Assembly: GCF_048403405.1 (NCBI RefSeq)
Contig: NZ_CP183129.1
DNA from: Escherichia coli
GTDB taxonomy: Bacteria; Pseudomonadota; Gammaproteobacteria; Enterobacterales; Enterobacteriaceae
Reading direction: 5' to 3' (one strand)
DNA: 64,000 bases
The notes under the pieces were generated by a model. That model was given only the letters and a program-made list of their open reading frames with translations, did no database searches and was not told where the DNA came from. Numbering within the stretch: the stretch's first letter is position 1; every line of letters starts with the position of its first letter. A program made the position numbers and the translations under genes. This document shows positions 11,275 through 50,794 of the stretch, in pieces.

Positions 11275-11307
11275 TAAAAAACCCGCTTTTTGAAGCGGGT
11301 TTTTTTG
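11275..11307. terminator. Bidirectional rho-independent terminator between lipA and tatE
   Basis: AAAAAACCCGCTTTTTGAAGCGGGTTTTTTT: GC stem flanked by A-run and T-run. Confidence 0.8.
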
Positions 11308-29583: not shown

Positions 29584-30147
29584 TTAGATTTTACCAACCA
29601 GGTCCAGAGACGGAGCCAGAGTTGCTTCACCTTCTTTCCATTTAGCCGGGCAAACTTCACCTGGGTGAGAAGCTACGTACTGTGCTGCTTTGATTTTACG
29701 CAGCAGGTCAGACGCGTCACGGCCAATGCCTTCAGCGGTAACTTCGATTGCCTGGATGATACCCTGCGGGTCAACAACGAAGGTCGCACGGTCAGCCAGA
29801 CCTTCATCTTCACGCATGTTGTCGAAGTTACGGGTCAGGGCGCCAGTCGGGTCGCCGATCATCGCATATTTGATTTTAGCGATGGTTTCAGAGCTGCTGT
29901 GCCATGCTTTGTGGGTGAAGTGAGTATCGGTAGATACTGCGTATACGTCTACGCCCAGTTTCTGCAGTTCTTCGTAGTGGTCAGCAACGTCACCCAGTTC
30001 GGTCGGGCATACGAAAGTAAAGTCAGCCGGGTAGAAAAAGAAGACGCTCCAGCGGCCTTCGGTATCTTTTTCGGTGATTTCGATGAATTCGCCGTTTTTG
30101 AATGCCTGGTTTTTAAAAGGTTTAATTTTGGTGTTAATCAAGGACAT
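29584..30147 (-). CDS. ahpC: Alkyl hydroperoxide reductase subunit C (2-Cys peroxiredoxin)
   Basis: 187-aa ORF with FTFVCPTEL peroxidatic-Cys motif. Confidence 0.95.
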
Positions 30148-30518
30148 CTATACTTCCTCCGTGTTTTCGATGAGATGTAAGGTAACCAATTTTTGCCGAT
30201 TCGGCTAATGCGTTTCCATTATCAAATCGATAAGTTTTACCTTACAACCTTCGTAAGACAACTTTGTGAACTTTGCACCGCCAGCGGCGATAAAAAGTAA
30301 AATGGCCCCCTTTCCAGGTGACCGTGTAATCTGAACTACCCTTTGGTATCTTCAGCGCCTGCCTGCAGGCTGAGGTGTTGCCCTTACAAATGCAACAACG
30401 ACATGGATTACAACACCCTCATAAACAAAGGGCAATCACCTGATCTAAGCTCTTACCTATGACAGTGATAGGTTATGCCTTTTACCCGACTTTTGCACTG
30501 ACTGAAAAGGACAAATTA
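30148..30518. promoter_or_regulatory. Divergent ahpC / dsbG promoter region, expected to carry OxyR-dependent control
   Basis: 371-bp intergenic region between divergent genes; contains palindrome CCTATGACAGTGATAGG about 60 bp upstream of dsbG; exact OxyR site not resolved. Confidence 0.45.
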
Positions 30519-31265
30519 ATGTTAAAAAAGATACTTTTACTGGCTCTGCTTCCTGCAATCGCCTTCGCAGAGGAACTTCCTGATCCAGTAAAAGCGATTG
30601 AAAAACAGGGTATTACGATCATCAAAACATTCGATGCTCCCGGAGGAATGAAAGGTTATCTCGGAAAGTATCAGGATATGGGCGTCACCATCTACCTAAC
30701 TCCAGATGGTAAGCACGCTATCTCCGGTTACATGTACAACGAGAAAGGTGAAAACCTGAGTAACACACTTATCGAAAAAGAAATTTACGCACCAGCCGGA
30801 CGCGAAATGTGGCAACGGATGGAACAATCCCACTGGCTCCTCGACGGTAAAAAAGACGCGCCGGTCATTGTCTACGTCTTCGCCGATCCGTTCTGCCCAT
30901 ATTGTAAACAGTTCTGGCAGCAGGCTCGCCCGTGGGTTGATTCTGGCAAAGTGCAATTAAGAACATTGTTGGTTGGCGTTATCAAGCCAGAAAGCCCGGC
31001 GACAGCAGCGGCAATTCTTGCCTCCAAAGATCCCGCAAAAACCTGGCAAGAATATGAAGCCTCTGGTGGCAAGCTTAAGCTAAACGTGCCTGCAAACGTA
31101 AGTACAGAGCAAATGAAAGTGTTAAGCGACAACGAAAAACTCATGGACAATCTGGGGGCAAATGTCACACCAGCTATCTACTACATGAGTAAGGAAAATA
31201 CGCTGCAACAGGCCGTGGGGTTGCCCGATCAGAAAACGCTTAATATCATTATGGGGAATAAATAA
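30519..31265 (+). CDS. dsbG: Periplasmic thiol:disulfide interchange protein DsbG
   Basis: 248 aa from MLKKILLL...; signal peptide; CPYC active site. Confidence 0.9.
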
Positions 31266-31472
31266 AAGATAATTCATGGATGGTTGAAATATATCCCTGT
31301 TTTTCAACCATCCTAAAAAAGCATGAATTGCTCGCTCTGCCCTAAGTGGCTGTGCTATTTTAGAAAAACTTAACTCTGAGTTAAGCAAAAAAACATAATA
31401 CAAATAAATACAACAGCAACATTATTGAACAAATGAATGATTTATAGAAGAGATAATATAACGGAGTATGTT

Positions 31473-32375
31473 ATGGCGAATCTTTATGACCTAAAAAAAT
31501 TTGATCTGAATTTACTGGTCATATTTGAGTGCATTTATCAACACCTCAGCATTAGCAAAGCAGCAGAATCATTATATATAACGCCATCTGCCGTTAGTCA
31601 GTCGTTACAACGTTTACGTGCGCAATTTAATGACCCGTTATTCATTCGCTCAGGGAAAGGTATCGCGCCGACTACGACAGGGTTAAATCTGCATCATCAT
31701 CTTGAGAAAAATCTCAGAGGCATTGAACAAACGATCAATATTGTTAATAAGTCTGAGCTAAAGAAAAATTTTATTATCTACGGCCCTCAGCTTATTTCTT
31801 GTACTAATAACAACATGCTAATCCGCTGTCTTAGACAAGATACTTCAATCGATATAGAATGCCATGACATACTGCTTTCAGCTGAAAATGCCGAAGAACT
31901 GTTGGTTCAACGCAAAACTGACCTGGCAATTACACTACAACCAGTAATTAGCCGCTCTGTCATCTGCATGCCGTTACATACTATTCGCAATTCTCTTATA
32001 TGTAGCAATAAACATCCTCGTATTACCGATACCAGTAACTATGAACAAATTATCGCCGAAGAATTCACCTTGTTGATATCTAAATCAGCAGGGATTGACG
32101 AAATTCAAATGGACATAGATGAACGTTTTATGAACCGTAAAGTTTCATTTCGCAGTTCTTCTTTGTTGACGATAATTAATAGTATTTCTGTTACTGACTT
32201 ATTGGGCATTGTGCCCACCGAACTGTACGATTTACATCGTGATTTTTTGAAGTTACAAGAGATAAAACTGGAACGACCACTTCCTGCGGTTAAACTTTAT
32301 ATTTCCTATAACAAGGCTTCGTTGAACAACCTTGTCTTCTCACGATTCATAGATCGTTTAAATGATAGCTTCTGA
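31473..32375 (+). CDS. ybdO: LysR-family transcriptional regulator YbdO
   Basis: 300 aa from MANLYDLKKFDLNLL...; HTH N-terminus; AT-rich gene. Confidence 0.8.
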   Translation: MANLYDLKKFDLNLLVIFECIYQHLSISKAAESLYITPSAVSQSLQRLRAQFNDPLFIRSGKGIAPTTTGLNLHHHLEKNLRGIEQTINIVNKSELKKNFIIYGPQLISCTNNNMLIRCLRQDTSIDIECHDILLSAENAEELLVQRKTDLAITLQPVISRSVICMPLHTIRNSLICSNKHPRITDTSNYEQIIAEEFTLLISKSAGIDEIQMDIDERFMNRKVSFRSSSLLTIINSISVTDLLGIVPTELYDLHRDFLKLQEIKLERPLPAVKLYISYNKASLNNLVFSRFIDRLNDSF

Positions 32376-32521
32376 TTTATTACCACTGATAAATGTTATA
32401 TTACGCATCAATTGATTCATTGTGTGAATATAAAATAATGTGCTCTATCTTGCTTCGTTTACCCTATAATTAGCGGATTCATCTCACGAGTCACCCCGTA
32501 ACGTTCAGAGAGCGTTTTCAG

Positions 32522-33742
32522 ATGTCTATTTATAAAATCCCGCTTCCACTGAATATTCTGGAAGCTGCAAAAGAACGTATTACCTGGACACTTAACACCC
32601 TACCCCGCGTCTGCGTTTCTTTTTCGGGTGGTAAAGATTCCGGATTAATGCTGCATCTGACCGCCGAACTTGCCCGACAAATGGGCAAAAAAATTTGTGT
32701 TTTATTTATCGACTGGGAAGCTCAGTTCTCTTGCACCATTAACTATATTCAGTCCCTGCGCGAGTTGTACACCGATGTCATCGAAGAGTTTTACTGGGTT
32801 GCGCTCCCGCTTACAACGCAAAATTCCCTATCACAATACCAACCCGAATGGCAGTGCTGGGAACCTGATGTCGAATGGGTACGTCAGCCCCCGCAAGATG
32901 CGATAACCGATCCTGACTTTTTCTCCTTTTACCAGCCTGGCATGACCTTCGAACAATTTGTGCGTGAGTTTGCCGAATGGTTTTCGCAAAAACGTCCGGC
33001 GGCGATGATGATCGGCATCCGTGCGGATGAGTCCTACAACCGTTTTGTCGCCATCGCCAGTTTAAATAAACAACGTTTTGCCGATGATAAGCCCTGGACT
33101 ACTGCCGCACCAGGCGGTCATAGCTGGTACATTTACCCCATCTACGACTGGAAAGTCGCTGATATCTGGACCTGGTATGCAAATCATCAAAGTCTCTGCA
33201 ACCCACTGTATAACCTAATGTATCAGGCAGGCGTTCCTCTGCGTCATATGCGAATTTGCGAACCTTTTGGTCCGGAACAACGGCAAGGATTATGGCTCTA
33301 TCACGTTATCGAACCGGATCGCTGGGCTGCTATGTGCGCACGAGTCAGCGGGGTAAAAAGTGGCGGCATTTACGCCGGACATGACAACCATTTTTATGGT
33401 CATCGGAAAATCCTCAAGCCCGAACATTTAGACTGGCAGGAGTATGCATTATTGCTACTCAACAGCATGCCGGAGAAAACAGCTGAGCATTATCGCAATA
33501 AAATCGCCATTTATTTGCACTGGTATCAGAAAAAAGGCATCGAGGTTCCACAAACCCAGCAAGGGGACATTGGCGCGAAAGATATCCCCTCCTGGCGGCG
33601 AATATGCAAAGTTTTACTCAATAACGATTACTGGTGTCGGGCATTATCATTTAGCCCGACCAAAGCGAAGAACTATCAGCGTTATAACGAACGAATAAAA
33701 GGAAAACGTCAGGAATGGGGGATACTATGCAACAACGATTAA
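32522..33742 (+). CDS. ybdN: PAPS-reductase-like (PP-loop ATP pyrophosphatase) family protein YbdN
   Basis: 406-aa ORF with N-terminal SFSGGKDS PP-loop motif. Confidence 0.85.
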   Translation: MSIYKIPLPLNILEAAKERITWTLNTLPRVCVSFSGGKDSGLMLHLTAELARQMGKKICVLFIDWEAQFSCTINYIQSLRELYTDVIEEFYWVALPLTTQNSLSQYQPEWQCWEPDVEWVRQPPQDAITDPDFFSFYQPGMTFEQFVREFAEWFSQKRPAAMMIGIRADESYNRFVAIASLNKQRFADDKPWTTAAPGGHSWYIYPIYDWKVADIWTWYANHQSLCNPLYNLMYQAGVPLRHMRICEPFGPEQRQGLWLYHVIEPDRWAAMCARVSGVKSGGIYAGHDNHFYGHRKILKPEHLDWQEYALLLLNSMPEKTAEHYRNKIAIYLHWYQKKGIEVPQTQQGDIGAKDIPSWRRICKVLLNNDYWCRALSFSPTKAKNYQRYNERIKGKRQEWGILCNND

Positions 33743-50740: not shown

Positions 50741-50778
50741 AATAAAAAACCCATAATTATTTTCTGTAATTATGGGTT
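50741..50778 (-). terminator. Rho-independent terminator after entF (minus strand)
   Basis: AACCCATAATTA...TAATTATGGGTT hairpin, with A-run on plus strand giving a T-run on the transcript. Confidence 0.7.
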
Positions 50779-50794
50779 TATAGATAATGTTAAT

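Follow-up and report, generated by a model that had tools for sequence, protein, structure and literature searches.

A conserved inverted repeat downstream of dsbG in Escherichia coli and its probable role as a 3′ stem-loop of the dsbG mRNA

The window, the whole 64-kb stretch of Escherichia coli DNA that was analysed, carries dsbG followed on the same strand by citR (formerly ybdO) and ybdN. The 351 bases around the dsbG–citR junction are 100% identical to E. coli PCN033, where the flanking genes in RefSeq are dsbG and citR. The encoded DsbG shares 99% amino-acid identity with the annotated K-12-type protein, whereas the adjoining CitR shares only 88% protein identity with CitR of K-12. The 351-bp junction is present at 80–90% identity in 4364 of 5419 E. 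coli genomes. The low identity of both CitR and the junction agrees with the H-NS-linked diversification of ybdO that has been published (PMC4720273). The features of the region are as follows, in window coordinates.

29584–30147, minus strand: ahpC (gene list).
30519–31265, plus strand: dsbG coding sequence with the stop codon TAA at 31263–31265; its transcript bears the hairpin (list of open reading frames; RefSeq annotation of the identical PCN033 DNA).
31224–31298, no strand: H-NS-dependent URE of ybdO/citR, −250 to −176 from the K-12 start codon, overlapping the 5′ arm and most of the loop of the hairpin (PMC4720273; coordinates converted by alignment).
31266–31277, plus strand: spacer of 12 nt, A/T-rich and polymorphic in E. 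coli (sequence; haplotypes).
31271–31278, plus strand: 5′ strand of an outer helix, AATTCATG, sharing base 31278 with the inner stem (repeat pair; fold).
31278–31289, plus strand: 5′ arm of the hairpin, GGATGGTTGAAA (repeat finder; fold).
31290–31301, plus strand: loop of 12 nt, TATATCCCTGTT (haplotypes).
31302–31313, plus strand: 3′ arm of the hairpin, TTTCAACCATCC, covarying with the 5′ arm across genera (repeat finder).
31314–31321, plus strand: A-run TAAAAAAG, at the place of the U-tract of an intrinsic terminator (sequence; fold).
31322–31329, plus strand: 3′ strand of the outer helix, CATGAATT, invariant among E. coli haplotypes (repeat pair; fold).
31353–31368, plus strand: citR promoter (PMC4720273; sequence), with a candidate extended −10 element, TGcTATTTT, at 31353–31361 (inferred from sequence).
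31369–31385, no strand: predicted CitR operator CTTAACTCTGAGTTAAG, a palindrome CTTAACTC-T-GAGTTAAG directly at the citR transcription start (PMC9068703; repeat pair).
31473–32375, plus strand: citR (ybdO), encoding a LysR-type regulator, the next gene downstream (list of open reading frames; RefSeq annotation of PCN033).
32522–33742, plus strand: ybdN (gene list).

The published start of citR transcription, 107/106 nt upstream of the start codon (PMC4720273), maps to 31367/31368. A 93-residue open reading frame covering the hairpin on the minus strand (31122–31403) and a 16-codon frame on the plus strand (31323–31373) are not considered real. The latter is not conserved and meets a stop after four codons in PMV-1-type strains. 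In the divergent spacer between ahpC and dsbG, upstream of ahpC and on its strand, a match to the enterobacterial sRNA family STnc70 of Rfam lies at 30292–30385 on the minus strand (44.1 bits against a gathering score of 40, E = 5.6e-07).

A perfect 12-bp stem is encoded shortly downstream of dsbG. Its arms, GGATGGTTGAAA and TTTCAACCATCC, are 100% complementary, as both direct reading and a repeat finder show, and they enclose a 12-nt loop exactly as the initial annotation had described them. That annotation termed the element a 12-bp perfect palindrome. The perfection of the arms holds, but with a spacer between them the element is strictly an inverted repeat. It also placed the element 13 bp after the dsbG stop codon. 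The site is right, and the figure is off by one at most: the gap measures 12 nt (31266–31277) and the stem begins at the 13th base past the stop. The sequence 3′ of the stem is TAAAAAAGCA. It opens with the A-run TAAAAAAG and contains one T within the first 8 nt, as expected from the earlier remark that an A-run stands here instead of a T-run on the dsbG strand. The inner stem contains five G-C pairs out of 12. The missing T-tract, the large loop, this modest G-C content and the lack of a call by a terminator scan all agree with the previous judgement that the element is not a canonical intrinsic terminator. The described position at an AT-rich boundary is also borne out, with a GC content of 0.47 in dsbG, 0.29 from the hairpin to the start of citR, and 0.37 in citR.

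The plus-strand RNA of a 60-nt stretch folds with −18.4 kcal/mol, compared with −6.6 ± 2.1 kcal/mol for shuffled sequences (z = −5.5), and none of 200 shuffles folds as well. The stem itself accounts for a computed stability of −17 to −18 kcal/mol. The hairpin pattern occurs once in the window, where no occurrence is expected. The window contains three perfect inverted repeats with arms of 12 bp or more and loops of 3–20 nt, whereas the average over 30 dinucleotide shuffles is 0.13. The fold z-score, the single occurrence and the shuffle comparison together exclude a chance origin of the repeat. In addition, the repeat finder reveals an outer helix around the hairpin, formed by AATTCATG (31271–31278) and CATGAATT (31322–31329). 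In the minimum-energy fold, the A-run (31314–31321) becomes an 8-nt bulge between the inner and outer helices, and the two helices form a structure of about 20 bp with −21.5 kcal/mol (z = −5.7).

Of 5426 complete E. coli genomes, 5349 carry the 71-nt hairpin region, at a median of one place per genome; its sequence is therefore not a dispersed repeat. The initial annotation had proposed to check the conservation of the arms between strains, and ten haplotypes sampled to span the identity classes of E. coli bear this conservation out. Polymorphic positions are confined to 2 of 24 in the arms, compared with 6 of 12 in the loop (Fisher p = 0.009). Both variable arm positions, 31278 and 31289, belong to the terminal pairs of the stem, and the right arm and the 10-bp core show no variation. 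Both flanks carry many substitutions, and the same strains diverge strongly about 20 nt further downstream. At the position of the A-run, A-rich variants are kept within Escherichia (TAAAAACG, TTAAAACG and TGAAAACC). In Escherichia sp. E1V33, the arms GGATGGTTGAAA and TTTCAACCATCC are replaced by GGATAACTGAAA and TTTCAGTTATCC through three double changes, likewise without a U-tract. Escherichia sp. MOD1-EC7003 contains one U-G wobble in the outer helix on the plus strand.

A scan with DsbG, taking one genome per species, yielded 70 loci. In most Enterobacteriaceae loci, a hairpin begins 5–13 nt past the dsbG stop codon. Covariation was assessed in an alignment of 27 sequences in register from Escherichia, Citrobacter and Pseudocitrobacter. 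The 9-bp core determined by RNAalifold is paired in 240 of 243 cells, and in seven of its nine pairs both partners have changed and still pair; the sequences behind both counts are related. For the 14-pair structure, the observed covariation is reached by none of 500 column shuffles, and all slid registers score far lower.

The pattern of wobble pairs bears on which strand is folded. A G-U pair on one RNA strand corresponds to an A-C mismatch on the other. The core contains ten G-U or U-G cells and one A-C cell, favouring the dsbG strand, although shared ancestry links these cells. When G-T and A-C are scored alike, all 45 distinct hairpins of the family together give 17 G-T against 7 A-C (p = 0.06). 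The A-C cases come mainly from Kosakonia and Klebsiella loci, which have a different, G+C-rich hairpin. At every locus with a gap of over about 2.5 kcal/mol between the plus-strand and minus-strand folds, the plus-strand fold is the more stable one. Since the cells are not independent events, the wobble pairs support a dsbG-sense structure but are not conclusive for it.

The gene order dsbG–citR–ybdN is widespread among the loci. Eleven loci lack citR downstream of dsbG, and ybdN directly follows dsbG in most of them. The hairpin is still present in ten of the eleven (loci L018–L020, L023–L025, L027, L032, L070 and L075), and clear homology to the stem of Citrobacter and Escherichia is seen in some of them. 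The eleventh, L055, has no convincing hairpin. The retention of the hairpin in the absence of citR indicates that it belongs with dsbG and not with the citR promoter.

The hairpins of different genera vary in their tails. T-rich tails with 5–7 T in 8 nt follow the hairpin in Pseudocitrobacter (TTTTCTAG) and in one Citrobacter youngae lineage (L012) and Citrobacter sp. (L015), which carry TTCTTTTC. Tails of the same composition occur in Leclercia, Silvania and one Pectobacterium locus (L061). The corresponding 8 nt contain 1–3 T in all Escherichia variants. Judged by their tails, the T-tailed orthologues look like intrinsic terminators, whereas the Escherichia hairpin does not.

Salmonella arizonae and diarizonae (L021 and L022) display a different arrangement in the first 70 nt past dsbG. 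A G+C-rich nested palindrome, GCCCGATA...TATCGGGC inside CAGGAG...CTCCTG, replaces the A/U-rich hairpin and has a REP-like look. The dsbG–citR spacer is about 110 nt longer in these genomes.

The inverted repeat is probably a U-less 3′-terminal stem-loop of the dsbG mRNA, of the Rho-dependent kind, that serves as a barrier to 3′ exonucleases. The comparative data show that the hairpin exists, and they indicate that purifying selection acts on its pairing in the dsbG-sense strand and that it travels with dsbG rather than citR. Of the two functions offered by the initial annotation, a protein-binding site and a stabilising 3′ structure, the latter is favoured by the compensatory changes, the dsbG-sense G-U wobbles and the linkage to dsbG with or without citR. 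A precedent is provided by Dar and Sorek 2018 (PMC6061677), who found that Rho-dependent transcripts of E. coli end just past stable stem-loops without U-rich tails. Such stem-loops guard the RNA against PNPase and RNase II, and C is mildly raised over G downstream of them (PMC6061677).

The involvement of Rho, the trimming by exonucleases and the exact 3′ end are parts of the reading that we infer. Because a U-tract is missing in Escherichia, the hairpin alone should not release RNA polymerase efficiently. Transcription of dsbG would then run past the hairpin into the untranslated, AT-rich and H-NS-bound dsbG–citR spacer. It would end diffusely there, probably by the action of Rho, or the RNA would be cut downstream. 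PNPase or RNase II would trim the 3′ tail back until blocked by the stable hairpin, which would thus set the steady-state 3′ end and shield the dsbG mRNA.

The base composition downstream of the stem gives a mixed picture. The C/G ratio is 1.3–1.6 in 78-nt windows starting at 31280–31360, and the first 80 nt past the stem contain 14 C and 14 G. The excess of C over G is weak in this mostly A/T region, and no rut site is evident in it. An A-rich upstream sequence goes with intrinsic terminators rather than Rho-dependent ends (PMC6061677). The A-rich upstream spacer of dsbG, the 12-nt loop and a stem that is more A/U-rich than typical terminator-type hairpins count against a Rho-type reading. 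An experimental 3′ end of dsbG was sought by gene name and by estimated MG1655 coordinate in the supplements of Adams et al. 2021, which hold none, and the TERMITe supplements contain no entry for it. A search of the literature for dsbG together with Term-seq, terminator or bicyclomycin returned nothing relevant.

Alternative explanations assign the repeat to DNA, to RNA polymerase or to the past. It is very unlikely that the repeat acts as a DNA-level site, either a symmetric operator bound by a dimer of CitR or of some other regulator, or a part of the H-NS element that silences citR. Relative to the start of citR transcription, the repeat covers about −90 to −54. Its 5′ arm and loop overlap the stretch from −250 to −176, whose deletion relieved the repression by H-NS in ybdO reporter fusions (PMC4720273). 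A CitR ChIP-exo peak also lies upstream of citR (PMC9068703). However, the site predicted for CitR (YbdO) by phylogenetic footprinting is CTTAA-N7-TTAAG (PMC9068703 supplementary Fig. S2). It corresponds to a separate palindrome 56 nt downstream of the hairpin (31369–31385), is conserved across genera, and leads us to reject the hairpin as the CitR operator. The arms differ by genus (GGATGGTTG, GAGTGATTG, GGGTGATTG and GAATGATTG), while the N-terminal DNA-binding region of CitR is almost invariant, and the hairpin is kept in genomes without citR; the protein-binding site of the initial annotation is disfavoured by both observations. Tolerance of G-T on one strand would be meaningless for the recognition of duplex DNA. 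LysR-type operators are dyads of the T-N11-A type. The hairpin resembles them in its dyad symmetry upstream of the promoter of a LysR-type regulator gene, but its 12-nt arms have centres 24 bp apart, covary instead of being conserved in sequence, and occur without citR. As for H-NS, its binding requires A/T-rich DNA and not dyad symmetry, the arms have the lowest A/T content of any part of the spacer, and the conserved complementarity and strand-specific wobble pairs would be left unexplained.

Direct action on RNA polymerase, as a weak or bidirectional intrinsic terminator of dsbG transcripts and/or of antisense transcripts from the H-NS-silenced citR region, is an unlikely explanation as well, but a less remote one. 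With intrinsic terminators the hairpin shares its position a few nucleotides past a stop codon and an A-rich tract upstream, and orthologous or same-position hairpins of other genera carry T-tracts on the plus strand. It differs from them in its tail TAAAAAAG, its 5/12 G-C pairs and its loop of 12 nt in place of the usual 3–8 nt. The U-tract of about 7–8 nt directly past the stem is absent from the plus strand, with one T in 8, and a consensus scan passed over the site. RNA of the minus strand forms a fold as well (−17 kcal/mol, z = −3.9). Past the outer helix, this structure is followed by AUGAAUUAUCUUUUAUUUAUU, a U-rich tail encoded by the A-rich spacer and the end of dsbG around its stop, and a promoter-like site is present on the minus strand at 31384–31357. 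Yet the first 8 nt past the inner stem contain 3 U on that strand, the terminator scan makes no call there, the wobble pairs stand at 10 to 1 for the plus strand, and promoter-like matches in the region are at shuffle level (8 against 6.8). A candidate sRNA of Salmonella, STnc3180, lies in the ybdO–dsbG spacer in the opposite orientation (PMC5001712). In a table taken to give cross-species conservation, its values fall to about 0.58 (background), apparently outside Salmonella, and because of this apparent restriction STnc3180 was dropped as an explanation. Finally, the hairpin could be a relic, an ancestral intrinsic terminator that lost its U-tract in Escherichia and persists without function by low divergence time or hitch-hiking. 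The T-tracts of relatives and the finding of no experimental function for the hairpin in the E. coli literature are in line with such an origin. Against it, 22 of 24 arm positions are fixed in E. coli despite many substitutions in the loop and flanks, and in the U-less Escherichia lineage three base pairs have been preserved through double changes. Both the arm–loop contrast and these compensatory changes point to continuing selection on pairing, which makes a relic improbable.

A U-less 3′ stem-loop of the dsbG mRNA thus remains the preferred reading, and it can be compared with known elements. In common with the Rho-dependent 3′ stem-loops of Dar and Sorek 2018, the dsbG hairpin is a stable U-less stem-loop shortly past the stop codon of a poorly expressed gene, and the mild downstream excess of C over G may be a further likeness. 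A barrier to PNPase and RNase II that sets the steady-state 3′ end would be its expected role. It differs from them in its 12-nt loop, A/U-rich stem, A-rich upstream spacer and an outer helix with an 8-nt A-rich bulge. REP elements are likewise extragenic palindromes that follow genes and are able to block 3′ exonucleases, but the dsbG hairpin occurs once per genome and its sequence has no relation to the REP consensus. A REP identity was rejected on finding one copy in the window and a median of one place per E. coli genome. The hairpin also does not qualify as a 3′UTR-derived sRNA of the Hfq type, for it has no U-tail and no Rfam family at threshold. An Rfam search of 30000–32600 with E up to 10 returned nothing credible at the hairpin, where the sole match is a chance-level hit to a plastid psbM 3′UTR model (30.8 bits against a gathering score of 52.7).

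The dsbG hairpin is real but ordinary. It adds to a known class one member that had gone unremarked, and as a routine signal at the end of a gene it does not represent a novel kind of element. For annotation, dsbG gains a defined and conserved 3′ boundary element. The dsbG–citR spacer carries three separate signals. One is the RNA hairpin, a second is the H-NS element together with the promoter, and the third is the CitR box. The −176 end-point of the published ybdO reporter deletions cuts through the hairpin.

It has been proposed that terminators could switch mode through a change in uridine content alone (PMC6061677). Comparison of the tails suggests that the dsbG locus appears to have moved between termination modes by such a tail change alone. 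Since the T-tract present in some genera is missing from Escherichia, the locus offers a clean comparative case for this kind of change. One may speculate, with little confidence, that a single orthologous terminator hairpin changes its mode across Enterobacteriaceae, being Rho-dependent in some members and intrinsic in others. In Escherichia it might double as an insulator, overlapping the H-NS element of citR, with its RNA marking where OxyR-inducible dsbG transcription must stop. Were this so, read-through from dsbG would not disturb the H-NS silencing of the fast-diverging citR locus.

Insertions of IS1 are seen at the locus in two E. coli strains. In CAVP888 (locus L081, ~1540–1550), IS1 is inserted within the 3′ arm of the hairpin. 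In LB19b (locus L005, ~2610), it lies at the very end of dsbG, and citR and the start of ybdN are deleted.

Two further perfect 13-bp repeats are found elsewhere in the window. One, at 50747–50779, consists of AAACCCATAATTA and TAATTATGGGTTT around a 7-nt loop and is followed by ATAGATAATG, without a T-tract; it may be another U-less hairpin of the same general kind. The other, at 11276–11305, has the sequence AAAAAACCCGCTT TTTG AAGCGGGTTTTTT and is a textbook bidirectional intrinsic terminator.
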